Shown here: positions 414 to 40,425 of the stretch, in pieces
Position numbering within the stretch: the first letter of the stretch is position 1
How the letters are laid out: each line of letters starts with the position of its first letter
NCBI GenBank assembly: GCA_022825065.1
Contig: JAJDYR010000018.1
Coordinates: forward strand, 33,606 to 97,605
Source: a bacterium
GTDB lineage: Bacteria > UBA8248
Direction: 5' to 3'
Length of the DNA stretch: 64,000 nucleotides
Notes under the pieces: model-generated
The model's database searches: none
Told to the model about the DNA's origin: nothing
What the model saw: the letters and a program-made list of their open reading frames with translations, nothing else
Program-made: the position numbers and the translations under genes

Positions 414-1529
414 TCAGTCGTATTCCGCGAGTGCGGGCAAGGGCTGCTCCAGGGTGATGGGCTCCGTATCTTCCAGCAGCGGCATGATCTCGCGTCCGAA
501 TATCTCCACCTCCTCGACGTGCGGCCAGCCGGAGAGGATGAACGTGTGAACACCCACGTCCACGTATTCCCTGAGCGCCTTGGCGATCATGTCGGGCGTG
601 CCCACCAGCGAAGCGCCCGCGCCCGCTCGGACGGTGTTCACGCCCATCCACAAGGTGTCGGTGATCCAGAGCGACTCGCCCTTCGCCAGTTCGTTGACGC
701 GCGTCTGCCCGGTGCTCTCCGTTTTGGTCTTCATGTCGGACCAGGCCTGCACGTTCGAAATGTCGCTTCCCTCGATGAGCGCTTGCGCGGCTTTTTTCGC
801 CTCCGCCCTGGTCTCCCGGCAAAGGATGTGCATCCGCACGCCGAATTGAATCTTATCCTCGCGGCCGAACTCCGCGGCTCGGCGCCTCATGTCGAGCACG
901 TCTTTGGCGATGGTCTCTACATCCACGGCGTACATCATGTGCACGTCGGAGAATTTCGCCCCCACTTGGCGGCCGGGCTCGGAACTCCCGCCGAGATAGA
1001 TGGGCGGCCAGGGTTTCGAGACGTGGATCGGGAAAAAGGCGGCTTCCCGTATGTCGAAATACTTCCCCTTGTAGGTGACGGGAGCGTCGGCGCTCCAGAT
1101 TCGTGTGACAATTTCGAGAAACTCATCCGTCCTGTCGTAGCGCTCATCGTGTACGAGATGGTCGCCGTAGCGCATCTGCTCCACGTGGCTCGATCCGGTG
1201 ACGACGTTGAGCGTCAGCCGCCCGCCGGTGAGCGCGTCGAGCGTGCTCGCCGTCTGGGCGGCGAATACGGGACTGGTGAGGCCGGGGCGGAACGCCACGC
1301 AGAATTTGATTCTCTCGGTGTGCTGGGCCACGCCCGCGGCCACGAGCCAGGCGTCCATGCAGTGGGTGCCGGTGGGAACCAGAAGGTTCACGAAACCGGC
1401 CCGCTCGGCGGCGCTCGCCACCTGGGAGAGGTACTCGATGGTGGGTTTTCGTTCAGGCACCCTCGTGTTGATCTTGTGGCCGTCACCCGCCCTGGCCGAC
1501 GGGAGAAACCAGGCGTATTCTGTACCCAT
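414..1529 (-). CDS. LLM-class (luciferase-like) flavin-dependent oxidoreductase, copy 1
   Basis: 371-aa ORF. TIM-barrel LLM family hallmarks (GTHCMDAW, LTLNVVTGSS, FILSGWPHVEEVEIFGREIMPLL). ~93% identical to the downstream copy. Confidence 0.85.
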   Translation of the reverse strand: MGTEYAWFLPSARAGDGHKINTRVPERKPTIEYLSQVASAAERAGFVNLLVPTGTHCMDAWLVAAGVAQHTERIKFCVAFRPGLTSPVFAAQTASTLDALTGGRLTLNVVTGSSHVEQMRYGDHLVHDERYDRTDEFLEIVTRIWSADAPVTYKGKYFDIREAAFFPIHVSKPWPPIYLGGSSEPGRQVGAKFSDVHMMYAVDVETIAKDVLDMRRRAAEFGREDKIQFGVRMHILCRETRAEAKKAAQALIEGSDISNVQAWSDMKTKTESTGQTRVNELAKGESLWITDTLWMGVNTVRAGAGASLVGTPDMIAKALREYVDVGVHTFILSGWPHVEEVEIFGREIMPLLEDTEPITLEQPLPALAEYD

Positions 1530-1884: not shown

Positions 1885-3000
1885 TTAATCGTATTCCGCG
1901 AGGGCGGGCATGGGAGGCTCCAGGGTGATGGGCTCCGTATCCTCGAGCAGGGGCATGATCTCGCGTCCGAATATCTCCACCTCCTCGACGTGCGGCCAAC
2001 CTGAGAGGATGAACGTGTGAACGCCCACTTCCACGTATTCCTTGAGCGCCTTGGCGATCATGTCCGGCGTTCCCACCAGGCAGGCGCCCGGGCCCGCGCG
2101 AACGGTGTTCACGCCCATCCACAAGGTGTCGGTGATCCAGAGCGACTCGCCCTTCGCCAGTTCGTTGACGCGCGTCTGGCCTATGCTCTCCGATTTGGTC
2201 TTCAAGTCGGCCCAGACCTGCACGTTCGAGATGTCGCTCCCCTCGATGAGTGCTTGCGCGGCTTTTTTCGCCTCCTCTTTTGTCTCCCGGCAGAGGATGT
2301 GCATCCGGACGCCGAATTTTATCTGCTCTTCGCGGCCGACCTCCGCGGCGCGCCGCTTCATGTCGAGCGCGTCCTTGGCAATGGTCTCCACATCTACGGC
2401 GTACATCATGTGCACGTCGGAGAATTTCGCCCCCACCCGGCGGCCGGACTCCGAACTTCCGCCGAGATAGATGGGCGGCCAGGGTTTCGAGACGTGGATC
2501 GGGAAAAAGGCGGCTTCTTTGATGTCGAAATACTTTCCCTTGTAGGTGATGGGAGCGTCAGCGCTCCAGATGCGCGTGACGATCTCCAGAAACTCCTCCG
2601 TCCGGTCGTAGCGCTCATCGTGTGCGAGGTGGTCGCCGTAGCGCATCTGCTCCGCGTGGCTCGAGCCGGTGACGACGTTGAGCGTCAGGCGTCCGCCGGT
2701 GAGCGCGTCGAGCGTGTTCGCCGTCTGGGCGGCGAATACGGGGCTGGTGAGACCCGGTCGGAACGCCACGCAGAATTTGATTCTTTCGGTATGCTGCGCC
2801 ACGCCCGCGGCCACGAGCCAGGCGTCCAGGCAGTGGGTGCCGGTGGGCACCAGAAGGTTCACGAAACCGGCCCGCTCGGCGGCGCTCGCAACGCGCGAGA
2901 GGTACTCGATGGTGGGTTTTCGCTCAGGCACCCTGGTGTTGATCTTTTGGCCGTCACCCGCCCTGGCCGACGGGAGAAACCAGGCGTATTCTGTCCCCAT
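1885..3000 (-). CDS. LLM-class flavin-dependent oxidoreductase, copy 2 (tandem paralog)
   Basis: The ORF-track entry 1885..3087 has an N-terminal extension. The homologous start MGTEYAWF maps to ATG at 3000. Protein is ~93% identical to copy 1. Confidence 0.85.
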   Translation of the reverse strand: MGTEYAWFLPSARAGDGQKINTRVPERKPTIEYLSRVASAAERAGFVNLLVPTGTHCLDAWLVAAGVAQHTERIKFCVAFRPGLTSPVFAAQTANTLDALTGGRLTLNVVTGSSHAEQMRYGDHLAHDERYDRTEEFLEIVTRIWSADAPITYKGKYFDIKEAAFFPIHVSKPWPPIYLGGSSESGRRVGAKFSDVHMMYAVDVETIAKDALDMKRRAAEVGREEQIKFGVRMHILCRETKEEAKKAAQALIEGSDISNVQVWADLKTKSESIGQTRVNELAKGESLWITDTLWMGVNTVRAGPGACLVGTPDMIAKALKEYVEVGVHTFILSGWPHVEEVEIFGREIMPLLEDTEPITLEPPMPALAEYD

Positions 3001-3129
3001 ATCGAAAACCTCTGTGGTGAGAGATGCGCCCAGTATAGCCCAAAATGGAGGAGCATGTATCGGCTGCGCCTGTTTTTGAAAATACAAACAAGGCGAATGC
3101 CCGTCGACCTCAACACAGAGGCCGCGAAG

Positions 3130-13967: not shown

Positions 13968-14092
13968 GAGCAACCCCCCCTACCCCCCCTTGTCAGGGGG
14001 GTATAAAAAGGCAATGCGCCCCTGCCGGGCTGAGGGGGTTTTGATTTTTCTTGCCCCCCTGACAAGGGGGGGTAGGGGGGGTTGGTTTTCGA
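13968..14092. repeat. MITE-like inverted-repeat element, copy A
   Basis: Left arm AACCCCCCCTACCCCCCCTTGTCAGGGGGG and right arm CCCCCCTGACAAGGGGGGGTAGGGGGGGTT are reverse complements flanking a ~50-bp spacer (tataaaaaggc..gcgcc..gggctgagggggttttgatttttcttg). Confidence 0.8.
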
Positions 14093-15339: not shown

Positions 15340-15532
15340 GAAAACCAACCCCCCCTACCCCCCCTTGACAGGGGGGTATAAAAAGGCGATGTGCCCTCGC
15401 TGGGTTGAGGGGGTTTTGCTTTTTCTCGCCCCCCCAGCACCACCATACTTGAATCATCGCGCCATTTTAGCTGAGGGGGGTTTGATTTTTCTTGCCCCCC
15501 TGTCAAGGGGGGGTAGGGGGGGTTGCCTTTAT
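15340..15532. repeat. MITE-like inverted-repeat element, copy B (with internal partial duplication)
   Basis: Same terminal inverted repeats as copy A, including the gaaaaccaacc left flank and ggttgcctttatc right flank. The spacer contains a duplicated gggttgagggggttttgc segment. Confidence 0.8.
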
Positions 15533-15801: not shown

Positions 15802-16203
15802 ATGCCGGTGACGAATTGGGACGAACTGCCCGTGAAGGTGCCGTTCCCGGGGGTGGAAGTGGGCCTCGTGAGCGGGAAGCACTGCATGATCAGCTACATC
15901 CACGCGAAAGGCGGGAACTCCACCCGCAGGCACCACCACGAGGCGGAGCAGATTTTCTGCCTCATCAGCGGCTCCGCCCGCGTGCAGGCGGGCGACGACC
16001 CGGTGGCGGTGCTGAAGCCGGGCGACGTCTGGTACGTGCCGCCGCACACCGAGCACCAGGCGGACTACCTCGAAGACACGGTGGCCTTCGAGGCCGCAGG
16101 CCCCATCCGCCTGGACAATTTCGCGGGCTACCTGCACGAGGACACGCATTTCGTGGATCAAAGAGACCTCGCGGCGGACATGGAGCGGGAACAGGCCGGG
16201 TAG
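15802..16203 (+). CDS. Cupin-domain protein
   Basis: 133 aa with the cupin two-His motif region (HHHEAEQIFCLISG ... PGDVWYVPPHTEH). Last ~10 codons plus the stop (AADMEREQAG*) are shared with the Rieske gene's 3' end. Confidence 0.7.
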   Translation: MPVTNWDELPVKVPFPGVEVGLVSGKHCMISYIHAKGGNSTRRHHHEAEQIFCLISGSARVQAGDDPVAVLKPGDVWYVPPHTEHQADYLEDTVAFEAAGPIRLDNFAGYLHEDTHFVDQRDLAADMEREQAG

Positions 16204-16239
16204 GGGGTAAGTGCTAAACTGGCACGGGAAATAGGTTTT

Positions 16240-16412
16240 GTAGGGGTCAGACATATATGTCTGACTGCGTGTCCGCCCTTTGGGGTCACATATCTTGTCA
16301 TCTCGTAGTATGGCGGAGAGATAAAACCGGGCGGACACGCAGGTCCGCCCCTACGGTTTCGTTTCAATGTGCGCCTTTCTCGTAGGGACAGGCCCCTGTG
16401 CCTGTCCGGGGT
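16240..16412. repeat. Cluster of REP-like palindromic units with GTAGGG heads
   Basis: Units: gtaggggtcagacatatatgtctgac; gggcggacacgcaggtccgcccctac; gtagggacaggcccctgtgcctgtccgggg. Related units occur at 19293-19448, 23058-23176, 23901-24016, 34341-34373 and 40485-40658. Confidence 0.65.
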
Positions 16413-16569
16413 CTGCGACCCCGGACCGTTCTCATGAACGGTCTCTACGGATAACCGCAATTCCTTGTTCATCACTAACGTTTGACCACGCTTGACGAAG
16501 CGCGCGGCGCCTCGCTAGATTCAAGGCGAACGCCAGAGGACCCACTACACTTTGGTGGGAGAAAAACGA

Positions 16570-16992
16570 ATGACGGAATTCGAAACCGCAACCCTCGCAA
16601 TCCAGCAAGCCACCCTCGCGGCGCAGCAGGCCTCCGTTTGGGTCGCCGCTCTCGTCGGGGCCGCGCAGTGCTCCCTGATCGCGTATGGCCTCTACTTCAT
16701 GCGCCAGGCCGCGCGTCACCGGGATGCCCAGCACCGCGAAACCATGGAGGCGATGGATCGCAGTCACCGCGAATCCATGGAGGTGATGGATCGCCGGCAT
16801 CGCGAATCCATGGAGGTGATTGAAGGCCGGCACCGCGAACACATGGAGGGGATTGACAGCCGGCACCGCGAACACATGGCGGCGCTGGCCGTCCAGCGCG
16901 AGGCGGAAAAAGATCGGCACCGCGAATCCATGGCGGCGCTTGCAGACCAGAGCGAGGCGCTCAGGGAACTCATACGGCGCACCTCACAATAG
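16570..16992 (+). CDS. Membrane-anchored protein with tandem 11-residue repeats (HRESMEVMDRR-type), unknown function
   Basis: Hydrophobic segment VWVAALVGAAQCSLIAYGLYFMRQAAR, then at least 6 tandem 11-aa repeats (DAQHRETMEAM / DRSHRESMEVM / DRRHRESMEVI / EGRHREHMEGI / DSRHREHMAAL ...). A paralog with the same architecture sits at 63584-64000. Confidence 0.55.
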   Translation: MTEFETATLAIQQATLAAQQASVWVAALVGAAQCSLIAYGLYFMRQAARHRDAQHRETMEAMDRSHRESMEVMDRRHRESMEVIEGRHREHMEGIDSRHREHMAALAVQREAEKDRHRESMAALADQSEALRELIRRTSQ

Positions 16993-17194
16993 CATTCGCA
17001 CGAGAATCGGACGTTTCACGAGGTAGAGCGGCCATAGAGAGCCGCCCTGCTGCAGGTTCGTTTCGAAACGCGGGAGATGCGCAGCCGGACAGGGCAGGGG
17101 CCGCATTCATGAATCAATCGACGTTGACTCGCCGGTAAGTGAATTTGAATTTGGAGGGACAGATCGCGACCTGTCCCTACCCCTCTCTCGGCTT

Positions 17195-17330
17195 GAAAAC
17201 CAACCCCCCCTACCCCCCCTTGTCAGGGGGGCAAGAAAAAGCAAACCCCTCTCAGCATGGCGGGGACGCATCGCCTTTTTATACCCCCCTGTTAAGGGGG
17301 GGTAGGGGGGGTTGCCTTTATCCCCTGAGG
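17195..17330. repeat. MITE-like inverted-repeat element, copy C (spacer in opposite orientation)
   Basis: Same terminal inverted repeats. The spacer is the reverse complement of copy A's spacer. Confidence 0.8.
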
Positions 17331-17424
17331 ACTCGCTCTTGCCGGGGAGTTGTTCCGCCGGTAGGGTGGTGCGGACGTTCGGGGACGAACGAGGCGGCGA
17401 AGCCTCCCCGCGCGGAATGGAGGG

Positions 17425-19284
17425 ATGATGATGGAACGCAAGCCGGAATCCCGCCGCAAGTTGATAAAGGCGGGCGATTTCATTCGTGTCGGCGCACTGG
17501 ATGAGCTCAAGCGCGAGCGCATGAAAGTGGTGAGCGGCCGGCGCCATCCCATCCTCGTGGTGTATGAGGGGGGCCGCGTTCACGCGCTCGACAACCGCTG
17601 TCCCCATCTCGGCTTCCCGCTCCACCGGGGGTCGGTGGAGAACGGCATCCTCACCTGCCACTGGCATCACGCCCGCTTCGATCTCGAGAGCGGCTGCACC
17701 TTCGATCTGTGGGCCGACGACGTGCCGAGGGCCAGGGTCGAGGTGCGGGGCGATGCGGTCTGGGTCGCGGCCGATTGCAGTTATCCCGACGAGGGCGACT
17801 ACTGGCGCACGCGGCTCGGCGACGCCATGGCGCACGACCTGGACCTGGTGTCCGGGAAGGCGGTGCTCGGCCTGCTCGATCGATCCGTTGCAAGCGCCGA
17901 TATCCTCGCCGACGCCTTCCTGTTCGGCGCGCGGAACCGCGACGACTGGAGCGCCGGTTCCACGATTCTGGCCGCGCTGGCGAACGTGCTGCCGGCCCTC
18001 GATGAGGACGACCGCTATCTCGCGCTGTTCAAGGGCATCTCCGAGGTGGCCGGCGACTGCGCCGGCGAGATGCCGCGCCGCGACCGCAAGCCCCTGGCCG
18101 ATGCCGCGCCGTCGCGGGACACCATGCGGGGCTGGCTCCGGCACTGGTCCCTGGTGCGCCACCGCGACGGCGCGGAGCGCACCGTGCTCACCGCGATCGC
18201 CGCCGGCGCGACGCCCGCGGAACTCGCCGAACTCCTGGTCACCGCACAGACCGATCGCTACTACGCCGATCGCGGCCACAGCCTCGATTTCATCAACAAG
18301 GCGATGGAGTGCCTCGACGCCATCGGCTGGCGGCACGCCGGGGCCATCCTGCCCACGGTGGTCAAGACCATGGTGGCGGCGCGCGGCGAGGAGGAGGCGA
18401 ACGCCTGGCGCCACCCGCTCGATCTGGTGCCCCTCCTGGAGGCGGCCTTCGCCGAATTGCCTGAGCTTTTCAGGAAGGGGGGAGAGGCGAAGGGCGTCTG
18501 GCGGGATCACCGCGCGCTGGCCGGGGCCATCCTCGGCGAGGAGGCCGGGCCCATCATCGCCGCCTTGGGCGCCGCAGTCGCCGCCGGCGCCCGGCCGACG
18601 GACCTCTCCCGCGCGCTCGCCTATGCGGCGGCGATCCGCGTGGCGCGATTCGGCGCCTCGAACGAGTTTTCCGACTGGAACGCGGCGCTTCACGCCTTCA
18701 CCTACGCCAACGCGTTGCATCAGGCTCTGAAGCGCATCACCGCGGCGGGGGAGGCGCCGCCCGAGGCCCAGGCCAACGTGGTGCGCGGCGTGTTCCACGG
18801 CGCCATGGCGGTCTATACGAACCGCTTTCTCAACGTGCCCCCGGCCCGGCTGCCGGAGGAGGAGCCTGCGGCGCTGGCCCGGCTCCCCGGGGACGCGGCG
18901 GCGCTCCGCCAGGGCCTGCTCGATACGATGGACCGCCAGCAGCAGGTCCAGCCGGCGGCGCGGCTGGTCGCCCGGTATTTGGACCAGGGCCACGACCCCG
19001 CAGGCATCATCGCGACGCTCGGCCATGCGCTCCTGCGCGAGGACGCGAGCTTTCACATGTTCCAGATGTACGAGGCGGGCGTGCAGCAGTACCGCGAGTG
19101 GGCGGGTGAGCCCGAAGGCGGCCACATTCTGATCGCCGTGGCCCGCTTTCTCGCCGCGCATTCCCCGACCCAGCGCGCCCGCCACCAGACCGCGACCATC
19201 GCCCGCCGGCTGCATCGCGGGGAGAGCGTGCATGAGGGAGAGGGCGGGGACGCGGCGGACATGGAAAGAGAGCAGGCCGGGTAG
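17425..19284 (+). CDS. Rieske [2Fe-2S] domain protein with large C-terminal all-alpha domain of unknown function
   Basis: CPHLGFPLHRG...(17 aa)...CHWHHARF is the Rieske CxH-x17-CxxH motif. The gene is ~72% GC, clearly higher than its neighbours. The antisense ORF 17107..19380 (-) is judged spurious. Confidence 0.7.
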   Translation: MMMERKPESRRKLIKAGDFIRVGALDELKRERMKVVSGRRHPILVVYEGGRVHALDNRCPHLGFPLHRGSVENGILTCHWHHARFDLESGCTFDLWADDVPRARVEVRGDAVWVAADCSYPDEGDYWRTRLGDAMAHDLDLVSGKAVLGLLDRSVASADILADAFLFGARNRDDWSAGSTILAALANVLPALDEDDRYLALFKGISEVAGDCAGEMPRRDRKPLADAAPSRDTMRGWLRHWSLVRHRDGAERTVLTAIAAGATPAELAELLVTAQTDRYYADRGHSLDFINKAMECLDAIGWRHAGAILPTVVKTMVAARGEEEANAWRHPLDLVPLLEAAFAELPELFRKGGEAKGVWRDHRALAGAILGEEAGPIIAALGAAVAAGARPTDLSRALAYAAAIRVARFGASNEFSDWNAALHAFTYANALHQALKRITAAGEAPPEAQANVVRGVFHGAMAVYTNRFLNVPPARLPEEEPAALARLPGDAAALRQGLLDTMDRQQQVQPAARLVARYLDQGHDPAGIIATLGHALLREDASFHMFQMYEAGVQQYREWAGEPEGGHILIAVARFLAAHSPTQRARHQTATIARRLHRGESVHEGEGGDAADMEREQAG

Positions 19285-19292
19285 GGCAGACC

Positions 19293-19448
19293 GTAGGGAC
19301 AGGCCTCCGTGCCTGTCCGGGGCCGTGTATCCGTGTATTGAATCGATTGCAGAGGGGGACCCATAGGGCAGGGCGGCCACGGAGGGCCGCCCCTACGGGT
19401 TCGTTGTGATTTTGCGGTTTGTAGGGACAGGTCGCGACCTGTCCGGGG
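19293..19448. repeat. Composite REP-like cluster
   Basis: Units: gtagggacaggcctccgtgcctgtccgggg; agggcagggcggccacggagggccgcccctac; gtagggacaggtcgcgacctgtccgggg. Same composite architecture as the clusters flanking hicBA. Confidence 0.65.
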
Positions 19449-19464: not shown

Positions 19465-19600
19465 GATTGGTCGGAAAACCAACCCCCCCTACCCCCCCTT
19501 GTCAGGGGGGTATAAAAAGGCGATACGCCCCCGCAGGGTTGAGGGGGTTTTGCTTTTTCTTGCCCCCCTGTTAAGGGGGGGTAGGGGGGGTTGGTTTTCA
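19465..19600. repeat. MITE-like inverted-repeat element, copy D
   Basis: Terminal inverted repeats with GAAAACCAACCCCCCC / GGGGGGGTTGGTTTTC extensions. Confidence 0.8.
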
Positions 19601-19942: not shown

Positions 19943-22498
19943 CTATTCCTTCATGTAGCGCGTGCCGAATGCGCCGGCTACTGCGCCATTAGAGAAATTC
20001 GAGTTGAACTCACCCACCAGAACTGGGGGCGGTGCTACACCAGTTCCAACAGCCTCACCATCACCGGAGAATGTCCCCGACCAAGTGGACGTATCAGATG
20101 CCATGCCCTTTGATGTTCCGGTAATGCTGGCAGAACTAAGAACACCAGATGCGGTCGCCATGGTTACTTCCCACTCGTTGGCCTCTCCGCCTGATAGTTC
20201 AAAGTCCGAAATTGTCCCATGCACGGAATTGTGTTTGTCTGCGGCCACGGAAGTCTCTGCCCCGAAATAAGCCGTAAGGGCTACGTCCGCCGTGAACGTT
20301 CCTGCAGACCTGGCATCAAGAGAATTATCTGGATTCACGGTGTTGTAAACGTATACTCCGTGAGCGCCACCTTCATATTTCGCGCTTCCAGCTACAACAC
20401 TTCCTATATTCGTATTAGCGTCAAGACTTGAACCAGCGAAAGTCTGAACGGCATCGTAGGTGGTTTTGCCATCCTTGACGGTTTTCATGAGCCAGAAGCC
20501 ATAGTGCAGGTAATCATCATCCGCTACGGATACCATGGCCCCTGCGTCTGGCTTGAACTGCCATTCGCCCGTAATAGTGGTTATTTTCCCGTCCGCGTCG
20601 GTGACTGCCGTACAAGCGGCATTCACACATTCGAATGTTCCAGCCGCACCATCAAAAGTTCCCCTAAACTCACCTTCATTTCTATTTTCGGTTGTAGTGT
20701 CATCAGCAGGCAAGTTTGTGGTAGTAGTAGGCGCACTTGATATTCTGCTGGAAGCTACCTTGCCCACATCCGCCGTTTCGTCCAATTCATATGTGGTGCG
20801 TTGGTCACCAGTCCTCTCTGGGTCAGCGTCTCCCACCGTAAGAGTATACACAGAACTAAACGGCTCTGATTCAGGCGCCTCAATATCTGTCATGACACTT
20901 ACTATTTCTGAAACTCCTTTTCCGTTATCACGGACATACTTACCGTCCATCATCACGAACTTGGGGTCATTTTTCAGTGGCAAGGCAGGGTCCGTAACTT
21001 CTACCGATACAGAACCACTTTTATGAGAAATCTTCAGGGTATATTGATCGGCGGCATCAGTATCATCGAATGCCGGCGAGGTGGCGTCAGGCGTGGCGGT
21101 TGATTCAGCCGTTATGGCATCCGCTTTAGTCTTGACCATTTCATTCATAGCCTTTTTCGCAGCCGCCGCTTCCTCCATTTCTTCTTCTTCACGCCTCTTT
21201 TCTTCAGCTACTCTATCGGCCTCTTCCTTGGCGGCTACAACCATTCCGGCGAAACGCTCAACCGCAGCTTTTGCGGTCTCGGCTTTAGCCTGGGCGGCTT
21301 CCGCGTCAGCCGATGTAGTGGCGGCCGCGGCTTCATCGTTCGCGGCTTTCGCGTCCGCGACGGCATCTTCCGCCCGCGCGTAAGAGGCTTCGTCAGCAGC
21401 TTTCTGCTCATCCGTGAGGGCCGCAAGCGCCGCCTTCGCGTCCATGTACGCCTGCATGGCGGCCCCCTGCGCGGTCGAGAGCGCGGTCGCTTCCATGTGC
21501 GCGACCGTCACCATGCTAGCGTATTTCCTGGCATCGGCCAGCGCGCTTTCGGCGGCCATCTGGGCGGCTTCCGCATCCGCCGCTGTTTCGGCATTTTCCG
21601 CCCTTACTTTCGCGGCAAGCGCGTCCTCGAGAGCTCTCATGGCTATGTTGTAAGAAACGGAGTCGGCATCGCCTTGGCCCGCGATTGCATCCAGTGCAGC
21701 CTGCGCGGCATTAGCGGCCACTTCCGCGGCACCACGAGCGACTCTTATAGCGGACATTTCGGCCGCCAGATTGTCGGCAGCCGTTTTCGCGTCCGCTACC
21801 ATGTCGGCGTATCTCTGGACATCTGCGAGCGCGGCTTCCACGTCCGCCTGGGCAGCCTTCGCGGCTTCCGATGTGGTTGCCGCGTTCGCCATTGCGAGTG
21901 CTTCTTGAGCGGCCTCGTTCGCGACCTTGGCTCTCACGTATGAGTCGATGTCATGGGCTTTATTCGCCTCTGCGTCCGCCAATAAACTGGCCGCCATATC
22001 GGCCGCAGTCTTTGCGGCTTGCTTGGCGGTATCGAGCGCCATGGCTTCTTGCTGCCGATCCATTTCTGCCTGATCGGCCGCGGTCTTCGCGTCCGCTACC
22101 ATGCCGGCATACTTTTCAGCATCCGCTTGGGCCGCTTCTGCTTTCGCCTGCTCCGCCTTCGCAGCTTCCGATGTGGTTGCGGCTGCGGCCGCGTCACTCG
22201 CGGCTTTCGCGGCCGTGAGAGCGATTCGGGCTGCAGCATATGAGTCTGGATCGACACTCGCATCCGCCATCACGCCATCGACCGCCGTCATGGCAGCCGT
22301 ATACGCCGCCTTGGCGGCATTCTGCGCGGCTTCGAGAGCGGCGGCCTCGGCCGCGATCTCCTCATCCGTCGGGCCGGTCATCGGCGGTTCTGCCGTTCCG
22401 CTACCTCCGCCGCCGCCGCAGCCCGCCAGCGTCAGCGCGAACACGGCCGCCAGCGCGAAAGCGTAGAACTTGTGAATATACTTGTGTTTGAACTTCAT
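19943..22498 (-). CDS. Surface lipoprotein with Ala-rich internally repeated coiled-coil region and TbpB-like C-terminal beta-barrel domain
   Basis: Lipobox LTLAGC after the signal peptide. ~4 internal repeats of ~100 aa (TTSEAAKA..EKYAGMVADAKTAAD), also visible as DNA repeats at ~21700-21850 and ~22020-22160. C-terminal 300 aa is Gly/Ser/Thr-rich and ends ...GEFNSNFSNGAVAGAFGTRYMKE, like TbpB/fHbp-type handle-barrel lipoprotein C-termini. The 3' third of the gene is ~50% GC against ~65% locally. Confidence 0.75.
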   Translation of the reverse strand: MKFKHKYIHKFYAFALAAVFALTLAGCGGGGGSGTAEPPMTGPTDEEIAAEAAALEAAQNAAKAAYTAAMTAVDGVMADASVDPDSYAAARIALTAAKAASDAAAAATTSEAAKAEQAKAEAAQADAEKYAGMVADAKTAADQAEMDRQQEAMALDTAKQAAKTAADMAASLLADAEANKAHDIDSYVRAKVANEAAQEALAMANAATTSEAAKAAQADVEAALADVQRYADMVADAKTAADNLAAEMSAIRVARGAAEVAANAAQAALDAIAGQGDADSVSYNIAMRALEDALAAKVRAENAETAADAEAAQMAAESALADARKYASMVTVAHMEATALSTAQGAAMQAYMDAKAALAALTDEQKAADEASYARAEDAVADAKAANDEAAAATTSADAEAAQAKAETAKAAVERFAGMVVAAKEEADRVAEEKRREEEEMEEAAAAKKAMNEMVKTKADAITAESTATPDATSPAFDDTDAADQYTLKISHKSGSVSVEVTDPALPLKNDPKFVMMDGKYVRDNGKGVSEIVSVMTDIEAPESEPFSSVYTLTVGDADPERTGDQRTTYELDETADVGKVASSRISSAPTTTTNLPADDTTTENRNEGEFRGTFDGAAGTFECVNAACTAVTDADGKITTITGEWQFKPDAGAMVSVADDDYLHYGFWLMKTVKDGKTTYDAVQTFAGSSLDANTNIGSVVAGSAKYEGGAHGVYVYNTVNPDNSLDARSAGTFTADVALTAYFGAETSVAADKHNSVHGTISDFELSGGEANEWEVTMATASGVLSSASITGTSKGMASDTSTWSGTFSGDGEAVGTGVAPPPVLVGEFNSNFSNGAVAGAFGTRYMKE

Positions 22499-24044: not shown

Positions 24045-24215
24045 AAAACCAACCCCCCCTACCCCCCCTTGTCAGGGGGGTATGAAAAAGCGACACCCCA
24101 GCGAAGGGAAAAAGCGACACCCCGGCGAAGGGGGAAAAGAAAAGAAGGTCCCCCCGACAGGGGGGAGCAAAAAAAGACCCCCCTGACAAGGGGGGGTAGG
24201 GGGGGTTGCCTTTAT
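24045..24215. repeat. MITE-like inverted-repeat element, copy E (1.5-copy variant)
   Basis: Left arm, then a spacer with an extra half-arm (ccccccgacaggggggagcaaaaaaagacccccctgacaagggggggtagggggggttgcctttatc). Confidence 0.8.
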
Positions 24216-34387: not shown

Positions 34388-34540
34388 GGCAACCCCCCTC
34401 TTGTCTGAGGATAAAGGCAACCCCCCCTACCCCCCCTTAACAGGGGGGCAAAAAATGCAAAGCCCCCTCAGCCCGGCGAAGGCGCATCGCCTTTTTATAC
34501 CCCCCTGACAAGGGGGGGTAGGGGGGGTTGCCTTTCAAGA
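34388..34540. repeat. MITE-like inverted-repeat element, copy G
   Basis: Left-arm partial duplication (ggaaaggcaacccccctcttgtctgaggataaaggcaaccccccctaccccccc) and the canonical right arm. Confidence 0.8.
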
Positions 34541-40279: not shown

Positions 40280-40425
40280 AATAACCCCCCCTACCCCCCC
40301 TTAACAGGGGGGTCTTTTTGTTGCTCCCCCCTGTCGGGGGGACCTTTTTTTCTTTTACCCCCTTCGTCGGGGTGTTGCTTTTTTATACCCCCCTGATAAG
40401 GGGGGGTAGGGGGGGTTGCTTTTCC
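40280..40425. repeat. MITE-like inverted-repeat element, copy I
   Basis: Same arms. The spacer variant matches copy F (ggggggtctttttgttgctcccccctgtcggggggacc...). Confidence 0.8.

Follow-up and report, generated by a model that had tools for sequence, protein, structure and literature searches.

A C-terminal tail shared by neighboring cupin and Rieske genes is native to the cupin and was probably copied onto the Rieske gene by recombination

The 64-kb stretch of DNA analyzed here (the window) contains a small cupin gene and, downstream on the same strand, a gene for a Rieske-domain protein (Table 1). The Rieske protein has an N-terminal Rieske [2Fe-2S] domain followed by an all-alpha domain of roughly 490 amino acids. 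The two proteins are unrelated apart from a shared C-terminus: both end in AADMEREQAG. These residues and the stop codon are encoded by 36 nt of shared DNA (window positions 16170 to 16205 versus 19251 to 19286; the initial annotation had placed both starts 2 nt too early), of which 32 are identical. Similarity between the two copies begins 1 nt before the first Ala codon and ends 2 nt past the stop codon. All four differences between them (GAG CGG GAA versus GAA AGA GAG) are synonymous, an outcome with a P value of about 0.001 for four random differences. When the window was searched with a degenerate 33-nt pattern allowing up to 3 mismatches, there were exactly two matching sites, and the same pattern had no match in 100 dinucleotide-preserving shuffles. 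No further copies in the window were found with the 3-mismatch nucleotide pattern, a six-frame peptide search, or blastn and tblastn searches with the cupin. The sole other shared C-terminus among its 370 open reading frames of at least 80 codons belonged to two tandem paralogues that are 92% identical. Therefore, the C-terminal decapeptide shared by two unrelated neighbors, with its stop codon, is a real observation, as the initial annotation had claimed.

Table 1. Features of the cupin-Rieske locus, in window coordinates
Feature	Position	Strand	Evidence or remark
Cupin_2 gene, 133 aa, donor	15802..16203	+	Pfam Cupin_2, E=8e-12
Native copy of the 36-nt segment (last 10 codons, stop, GG)	16170..16205	+	Only synonymous codon variation in 20 cupin alleles
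Cupin downstream flank present in the window (ggggtaagtgctaaactgg...)	16204..16328	+	242 nt collinear (85%) with L016 Rieske downstream flank
Another copy of the poly-C MITE-like element, between cupin flank and Rieske gene	17205..17310		Matches the MITE that ends the L015 cupin flank
Rieske-domain gene, 619 aa, recipient, type B tail allele	17425..19284	+	Pfam Rieske, E=6e-14
Copied segment in the Rieske locus	19251..19322	+	72-nt match (92%) to L015 cupin 3' end and flank
REP-like unit (GTAGGG head, 8-bp stem), copied with the tail	19293..19322	+	-8.7 kcal/mol, z = -2.7
Poly-C palindromic MITE-like element downstream of the Rieske gene	19484..19589		Type A, type B, and cupin flanks re-converge inside it

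Comparison with orthologues shows that the tail is native to the cupin and is not an insertion there. DMEREQAG terminated all 20 cupin alleles examined. More distant orthologues with 65 to 75% identity, including one from Nitrospinota, have a homologous ending (...QRDLAALMKKQK...), and the tail is still recognizable as DLAAxMxKQK at about 65% identity. It is kept in these orthologues although the sequence downstream is unrelated, and in every strain the cupin flanks diverge right after the stop codon. The predicted cupin fold resembles those of small cupins such as 4e2g and KdgF. In the AF2 model the C-terminal helix, DLAADMEREQAG, spans residues 123 to 132 with a pLDDT of about 90.

The Rieske gene is different. 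Its tail is derived, as well as polymorphic, with the native C-terminus replaced. Orthologues that are at least 90% identical end with either the ancestral tail (type A, ...DAADPDALSDSAAK) or the cupin-type tail (type B, ...MEREQAG), and type B is limited to part of this closest cluster. Orthologues at 96%, 84%, and 81% identity were found to end in ...DAADMDALSGSAAR, ...DEADAYSDQAAE, and ...HPDALSHPAAK, respectively, and type A tails share homology with the tails of the 84% and 81% clusters. Relative to orthologue L001, the window gene shifts toward the cupin sequence from GCG GCG GAC onward. Therefore, the proposal that the native C-termini of both genes had been replaced holds for the Rieske gene, whose orthologues end differently and whose new end came with a REP unit, but not for the cupin. 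More than 7,700 Rieske homologues have acidic tails that are hypervariable after ...RRLHRG. The AF2 model of the window protein had a mean pLDDT of 89.7, but residues 605 to 619 scored below 50. The window protein itself had no exact match in the protein collection.

Types A and B coexist among Rieske alleles of 96 to 97% identity, and tail type is incongruent with the gene-body tree. Therefore, the Rieske 3' end recombines within the population. Incongruence aside, the neighbor-joining trees at 96 to 97% identity are star-like and uninformative on one versus several events. Six type B alleles were examined as DNA. The type B tail stayed in frame in six strains, which came from several samples. 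An assembly artefact was rejected because type B occurred in six independent assemblies from different samples, with distinct variants. In three of seven type B alleles a stop-loss read-through (+QGRP) buries the tail, one allele has a D to G change, and junction indels are also tolerated.

Similarity between the two loci extends well beyond the shared coding segment. In the window Rieske locus, the 72 nt that match the L015 cupin locus consist of 34 nt of cupin 3' coding sequence, including the stop codon, and 38 nt of cupin-type flank with the REP hairpin, and their distance from the stop codon is the same in both loci. The L014 Rieske locus is collinear with the L015 cupin locus for 142 nt (89%), the L016 Rieske locus with the window and L018 cupin loci for 242 nt (85%), and the L017 Rieske locus with the L015 cupin locus for 72 nt (96%). 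In type B alleles the similarity to the cupin starts 31 to 34 nt before the stop codon and runs 72 to 242 nt into the REP-containing flank, up to a poly-C palindromic MITE-like element common to all flanks. The type A Rieske alleles that were checked had no such match. Inside the window the similarity stops at TAGGG because the window cupin has a flank haplotype other than the one copied to the Rieske gene.

Both junctions of the exchange can be placed in these alignments. The L014 Rieske allele is type A-like up to ...GCGGCCGGTCCG and then switches to the sequence of the cupin 3' end and its flank, which it follows into the MITE; beyond this element L014 (type B) once more aligns collinearly with L020 (type A). 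The MITE-like element downstream of the window Rieske gene is the probable homologous anchor and right-hand junction of the replacement, judging from the flanks that re-converge in it. The left homology boundary is constant to about 3 nt across type B alleles, and their flanks are of at least two haplotypes. The left junction reads ...GNT CCG/GCG GAC ATG..., with about 3 nt (CGG) common to the parental sequences. L014 and L017 have a long-form junction, ...GGDAA(G/V)P-ADMEREQAG followed by the stop codon; no parsimonious derivation from the long form was found for the L016 junction (GGDDRAGMEREQAG). Collinearity with a defined polarity beyond the shared coding segment, together with one junction in extended homology and the other at microhomology, is the pattern of ectopic gene conversion or homology-facilitated illegitimate recombination (HFIR). 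In no family other than the cupins is the tail ancestral. An orphan cupin 3' fragment (L013), 150 nt plus a REP, lies 130 kb away in genome OZ244799.1 and has a different left breakpoint. Therefore, copying of the cupin 3' region is not tied to one site.

We also looked for the tail elsewhere. Across 185,579 species genomes, DMEREQAG followed by a stop codon was found only at cupin 3' ends, although, by requiring the stop, this pattern missed Rieske alleles with read-through; the OZ244799.1 allele is one of these and was recovered via the protein cluster. Nine related genomes had the segment at the cupin 3' end and, apart from one orphan cupin fragment, nowhere else. A scan of JGI metagenomes did not require the stop codon and returned 32 matches. 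Thirty were chance internal matches, some of them DMESEQAG because MGN also matches AGY, and the two C-terminal matches were both in cupins. Neither the species-genome nor the metagenome scan revealed a third protein family with the tail.

Together, these findings establish which gene was donor and which recipient, the polarity of the copying, where the junctions lie, and the polymorphism. They suggest that, in some strains, recombination replaced the Rieske 3' end with a copy of the cupin 3' end and its repeat-rich flank, and we consider this the likely explanation. The event would date to an ancestor from which some strains of this Nitrospinota lineage descend. About the last 31 nt of the cupin gene (GCG GAC ATG GAG CGG GAG CAG GCC GGG TAG) would have been copied together with at least about 100 nt of the REP/MITE flank that follows it. 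They would have replaced about the last 10 codons of the same-strand Rieske gene 1 to 3 kb downstream, as well as about 210 to 290 nt of Rieske flank. The right-hand junction would have formed in the poly-C palindromic MITE-like element, which follows both genes and so serves as a homologous anchor. At the left-hand junction, the two sequences would have been joined illegitimately where they share about 3 nt of microhomology (CGG), and this join was in frame by chance, producing the long form. The enzymology might be RecA-dependent HFIR or ectopic gene conversion, using DNA of the same genome or of another strain.

Repeated independent illegitimate joins would not give a constant left boundary with differing flanks. 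Therefore, the model needs one founding event and later homologous exchanges within the 31-nt tail. Crossing over inside this tail is plausible for these later exchanges, and the single founding event itself is our inference. The window sublineage would then have undergone three further changes: a 9-nt deletion between GCGG repeats, giving ...GGDAADMEREQAG before the stop codon; three silent substitutions in the Rieske copy (GAG CGG GAG to GAA AGA GAG); and a swap of the cupin's own flank for another haplotype. The C-terminal extension of the Rieske protein is acidic, hypervariable, and disordered, and the tail probably rides on it as a tolerated passenger.

The initial annotation had instead called the shared segment repeat-derived. 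According to that explanation, a REP/MITE-like mobile repeat encoding ...AADMEREQAG and a stop codon inserted at both 3' ends and replaced both C-termini, as Rickettsia palindromic elements do. The genome is dense enough in repeats to invite this idea, with 22 REP-like units and about eight poly-C MITE-like elements in the 64-kb window. A REP unit lies 9 nt after the Rieske stop codon and was transferred with the tail, and GGGTAGGG at the stop codon looks like a GTAGGG REP head. However, the GTAGGG over the stop codon belongs to no hairpin, and the true REP begins only 9 nt past the Rieske stop. The two copies of the 36-nt segment fold at -3.3 kcal/mol with z scores of +0.39 and -0.40, whereas true REP units scored -2.7 and -5.9. 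The window has just these two copies, and the search for others at gene ends, in species genomes and JGI metagenomes alike, led only to cupins. For the cupin the explanation is refuted, because its tail is conserved down to 65% identity with unrelated sequence downstream and the motif occurs in orthologues from other taxa, the observation that the initial annotation itself had named as refuting. Overall, we consider an inserted repeat highly improbable. A site-specific or transposition event is also rather improbable. Here the cupin 3' end would be the site of an integrase- or RAYT-driven element, and the 31-nt core would mark the far end of its module, fused to the Rieske gene by chance. The constancy of the left boundary despite differing flank haplotypes would fit this, as would the loss of similarity between cupin flanks directly past the stop codon in all strains. 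In addition, a module of about 0.8 kb with a small ORF directly follows one of the two tails, that of the cupin or that of the Rieske gene depending on the strain, and integrase genes or fragments adjoin the locus in L003 and L016. However, no integrase or transposase separates the two window copies; the interval contains just a small ORF plus the Rieske gene. In type A strains the Rieske gene lies in this position too, with no duplicated tail core, the left end of the orphan fragment is different (about 150 nt of cupin sequence), and the right junction is in a dispersed MITE.

The remaining explanation accepts DNA copying as the means but proposes that the helix DLAADMEREQAG acts as a module for docking or partner binding. 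Selection would have kept it on the Rieske protein because it let the two proteins bind a common partner or one another, and the shared peptide would be adaptive. In the cupin this helix is ordered and strongly conserved, type B is in frame in six strains, and the two genes are syntenic same-strand neighbors in nine loci. The GAA AGA codon variant was absent from the cupin alleles examined, and all three Rieske changes are silent (P of about 0.006). These silent changes fit selection on the peptide in the Rieske protein better than they fit a purely neutral passenger, and the all-synonymous differences between the window copies hint weakly at selection too. However, the three changes all lie within 4 nt of each other and may have arisen together in one mutational event. 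The coexistence of both tail types at 96 to 97% identity without association to the gene-body tree also argues against a selected module, as do the read-through and D to G alleles. The model confidence for the Rieske tail is very low, no third family has the tail, and more than 100 nt of noncoding flank came along, as expected of an accident. Therefore, a functional transplant is unlikely. It is equally doubtful that the cupin helix is a portable interaction module and that selection maintains it on the Rieske protein in part of the population. If it were, the silent-only divergence would be explained, and a Rieske electron-transfer protein would be physically coupled to the cupin or the cupin's partner. 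Such a coupling would be new protein wiring that arose naturally from a 31-nt tail swap and was caught recently after it formed.

Recombinational copying of the cupin 3' end resembles HFIR, or one-sided homology-anchored ectopic gene conversion, in that one end lies in a shared poly-C MITE and the other is illegitimate at about 3 nt of microhomology. HFIR was defined experimentally for incoming linear DNA in transformation or conjugation, whereas here the donor may be a neighbor on the same chromosome. A repeat-rich genome with a REP hairpin 9 to 15 nt from the new stop codon is also reminiscent of Rickettsia palindromic elements and of REP/BIME sequences near stop codons. Unlike in those systems, the peptide-coding segment lies outside the repeat, is not palindromic or multicopy, and corresponds to the conserved, native 3' end of a single gene. 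A search of the literature for trans-translation and for REPs close to stop codons found nothing directly usable. In att-site duplication by integrative elements, the 3' end of the target gene is duplicated. The locus is similar in having a short direct repeat of a gene 3' end kilobases downstream on the same strand. It differs in that there is no integrase between the repeats, the intervening segment is present in strains without the repeat, and the copy is fused in frame to another gene.

The shared tail is most likely an ordinary recombination accident and a clean example of a known process, and no repeat element rewrote both genes. It provides a population-level example of repeat-dense intergenic regions (REPs and MITEs) acting as homology anchors that drag codons between genes. 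The chimeric C-terminus would survive because the recipient tail is disordered, and the consequence for the organism is probably small. For genome scanning, it cautions that identical short tails on unrelated neighbors do not necessarily point to a shared signal peptide or to a mobile element, and the direction of tail transfer was quickly settled by orthologue comparison. Unlike a shared targeting or docking peptide, such as a compartment cargo tag, the tail occurs only on the cupin and on a subset of the alleles of one Rieske clade. The possibilities of a tmRNA tag, an encapsulin tag, or a BMC tag were dropped because the peptide is encoded in frame, occurs in two families only, and has no shell genes among its annotated neighbors. 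The Pfam-matched neighbors in the nine syntenic loci included no shell-type family; those called were aldo-keto reductase, M20 peptidase, luciferase-like, ThiI, cyclophilin-like, polyprenyl synthase, and Maf proteins.

The cupin protein and the Rieske-domain protein encoded downstream on the same strand both end in AADMEREQAG. Their 3' segments are identical at 32 of 36 nt, and all four differences are synonymous (GAG CGG GAA versus GAA AGA GAG; P ~0.001 for four random differences). With up to 3 mismatches tolerated, a degenerate 33-nt pattern occurs in the window at these two places only, and 100 shuffles contain no match. BLASTP found no similarity between the two proteins besides the tail. 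Therefore, the shared tail is real and chance is excluded, which confirms the initial annotation on this point. Of the 370 ORFs with 80 or more codons, only one other pair shared a C-terminus. They are tandem paralogues, and their 92% identity over 371 residues indicates a recent tandem duplication.

Coordinates of features in the window and in loci from relatives' genomes
Feature	Locus	Position	Strand
Cupin gene (Pfam Cupin_2, E=8e-12)	window	15802-16203	+
Rieske-domain gene (Pfam Rieske, E=6e-14)	window	17425-19284	+
Shared segment, cupin	window	16170-16205	
Shared segment, Rieske	window	19251-19286	
Poly-C/poly-G palindromic MITE-like element	window	13975-14080	
MITE-like element	window	15350-15521	
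MITE-like element	window	17205-17310	
MITE-like element	window	19484-19589	
MITE-like element	window	24054-24204	
MITE-like element	window	34422-34526	
MITE-like element	window	40286-40414	
Tandem paralogue	window	414-1529	-
Tandem paralogue	window	1885-3087	-
~0.8-kb module	window	~16329-17093	
ORF of module	window	16552-16992	
Module before cupin	L015	3127-3567	
Module after Rieske	L015	7185-7661	
Module after Rieske	L019	5688-6197	
Ala-rich ORF	window	19943-22498	-
Read-through	L015	6858-6869	
Read-through	L017	2097-2108	
Read-through	L018	6858-6869	
Orphan cupin fragment	L013	1632-1781	

We searched for cupin homologues and aligned the orthologues. The C-terminus of close relatives is DLAADMEREQAG; EMEREKAG and DMEREQNE occur as minor variants. 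At 65-75% identity, the orthologues, one of them a protein named as Nitrospinota, have the homologous ending QRDLAALMKKQK..., often with an added Lys-rich extension. In one genome for each of 185,579 species, we also looked for DMEREQAG directly preceding a stop codon. All 10 matches were cupin 3' ends; the 9 genomes concerned are MAGs, labelled either Nitrospinota or simply 'bacterium'. Tail codons in 20 cupin alleles vary only synonymously (CGG/AGG/CGC/CGA, GAA/GAG, CAG/CAA, and GCC/GCG/GCA), and the DNA directly 3' of the cupin stop differs between strains. In an AlphaFold2 model, the tail is part of a helix (residues 123-132, pLDDT ~90), and the predicted fold resembles small cupins. The tail is native to the cupin.

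The Rieske family (>7,700 matches) has an acidic tail after a conserved ...IARRLHRG, and its length and sequence vary freely. Clusters at 84% and 81% identity end in ...GDGVDEADAYSDQAAE and ...AEAVHPDALSHPAAK. Members of the cluster at ≥90% identity carry one of two tail alleles. Type A, ...GGDAADPDALSDSAAK and variants, is homologous to the tails of more distant clusters and is therefore ancestral, with type B, ...MEREQAG, derived. Type B proteins terminate in DAAGPADMEREQAG (L014), DAAVPADMEREQAGQGRP (L017), DAADMEREQAG (window), DAADMEREQAGQGRP (L015 and L018), and DDRAGMEREQAG (L016). The window's exact Rieske protein had no identical entry in the protein collection searched. Pfam families and solved structures (Rieske ferredoxins) cover only its first ~110 residues; the all-alpha domain of ~490 residues that follows has a pLDDT of ~95, no Pfam family, and no Foldseek PDB match.

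The DNA comparison of 3' ends took in the window, five other loci of type B, and three of type A. The type A sequence is GAC GCG GCC GAT CCG GAT GCC CTG TCC GAT TCG GCT GCG AAA TAG gcttcgacgaacgcc..., and that of L014, the long type B form, is GAC GCG GCC GGT CCG / GCG GAC ATG GAG CGG GAG CAG GCC GGG TAG gggagatcgtagggacagg..., where the slash marks the left junction. By blastn, every type B Rieske 3' end aligned collinearly, at the same offset, to the 3' end and flank of a cupin gene; the matches begin 31-34 nt ahead of the stop codon's last base. The L015 cupin matched the Rieske ends of L014 (142 nt, 89%), the window (72 nt, 92%), and L017 (72 nt, 96%), and the cupins of the window and L018 matched that of L016 (242 nt, 85%). 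No cupin 3' end or flank was matched by the type A alleles at three loci. In a four-way alignment, L014 tracks type A to ...GCGGCCGGTCCG and then switches to the cupin 3' end and flank. This stretch runs via a REP unit and ...GTCGAAGGGGACGCC... to a poly-C palindromic MITE-like element, inside which all flanks are alike, and beyond it L014 is again collinear with the type A locus L020. The left junction, in the coding end, has only ~3 nt (CGG) shared by the parents, and the right junction is inside the MITE. From these switch points, the Rieske locus lost its last ~10 codons and ~210-290 nt of REP-rich flank and gained 31 nt of cupin coding sequence with ~100 nt of cupin flank. Similarity between the window's two genes ends at TAGGG because its present cupin flank (ggggtaagtgc...) is another haplotype than the one copied.

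The Rieske tail came from the cupin locus and not from a repeat family. The initial annotation had proposed that a repeat was inserted into both 3' ends, replacing both native C-termini. Replacement holds for the Rieske protein, in which type B differs from the ancestral type A and the incoming DNA is collinear with the cupin locus. It does not hold for the cupin, whose homologous tail is kept in orthologues down to 65% identity. The suggested link to REP elements stands only in that a REP unit was co-copied onto Rieske.

There are 22 REP-like units (GTAGGG and then a hairpin) in the window, along with ~8 poly-C MITE-like elements, between which the genes of the cupin-Rieske locus lie. The MITE-like arms are ...AACCCCCCCTACCCCCCCTTGTCAGGGGGG... 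and ...CCCCCCTGTTAAGGGGGGGTAGGGGGGGTT; the element is present on both sides of every gene in the AKR-cupin-Rieske locus, with more copies over the window. It appears to be the homology anchor for flank exchange. We rejected the 36-nt segment itself as a repeat. It occurs only twice in the window and folds into no hairpin (z = +0.39 and -0.40, versus -2.7 and -5.9 for neighbouring REP units). A metagenome scan without the stop requirement gave 32 matches, and the only two at C-termini were both cupins. Further copies at the ends of other genes did not appear in the 185,579-species scan, which returned cupin 3' ends only.

The exchange combines a homologous anchor at one end with a microhomology join at the other, like homology-facilitated illegitimate recombination (PMC3240628), and its anatomy fits one-sided ectopic gene conversion between neighbouring loci equally. 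It is unlike RPEs, palindromic elements inserted into coding sequence (PMC1166351), because the coding segment here is outside the repeat. It is also unlike att-site duplication, because no recombinase lies between the copies and gene order is the same in type A strains. The cupin-to-Rieske tail copy is a fresh instance of an already known process.

The Rieske model has a mean pLDDT of 89.7, and residues 605-619, which take in the whole tail, score <50, in agreement with the family's hypervariable tails. The swap traded one short acidic tail for another. The silent-only changes leave space for selection on the tail, perhaps as an adaptive docking module, a reading that we consider quite improbable. 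Type B tails include forms with indels at the junction, a four-residue read-through, and, in one case, a D to G change. Because such changes are tolerated in a hypervariable region that scores as disordered, we regard the type B tail on Rieske as a tolerated passenger.

Type B alleles have changed further. The form in the window, L015, and L018 (GAC GCG GCG GAC ATG) differs from the long form by the loss of 9 nt between GCGG repeats, and this deletion lengthens the apparent cupin identity by ~5 nt. This sublineage carries three silent changes (GAA AGA GAG) absent from all 20 cupin alleles (P ~0.006 if independent). In L015, L017, and L018, the stop TAG became CAG, and the frame would add QGRP before reaching the next TAG, supplied by the GTAG head of a REP unit. 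This leaves 3 nt between the new stop and a stable hairpin. Behind its Rieske tail, L016 carries the flank haplotype that follows the cupin gene in the window and L018, which indicates a second exchange with a crossover inside the tail or an independent event; the L016 junction (DDRAG) has no simple derivation from the long form. Identity among Rieske gene bodies is 96-97%, and types A and B are interleaved in their star-like tree. Hence the Rieske 3' end recombines within the population. OZ244799.1 has an orphan 150-nt cupin 3' fragment (L013; ~3.066 Mb), the last ~50 codons with stop and REP included, in intergenic debris beside a truncated minus-strand ORF and 130 kb from its intact cupin locus. 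Its left breakpoint differs, which argues against a single specific site.

The neighbourhood also varies. A ~0.8-kb module has an ORF for a small protein that combines an N-terminal hydrophobic helix with HRE(S/H)ME repeats and has no Pfam match. The module's intergenic slot differs among loci, being between cupin and Rieske in the window and L018. Downstream of Rieske, a large ORF (851 aa) is Ala-rich and begins with a lipoprotein-like N-terminus (MKFKHKYIHKFYAFALAAVFALTLAGC...), and the equivalent position in relatives has ORFs of 575-765 aa with no Pfam match. The Rieske gene is not beside the cupin gene in a relative at greater distance (87% nt identity in cupin; L002 and L003 versus L001). 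L002 has a HicB-like gene in its slot, and L003 has an integrase fragment and a VapE-like gene after cupin. The slot behind cupin is therefore a general gain/loss hotspot.
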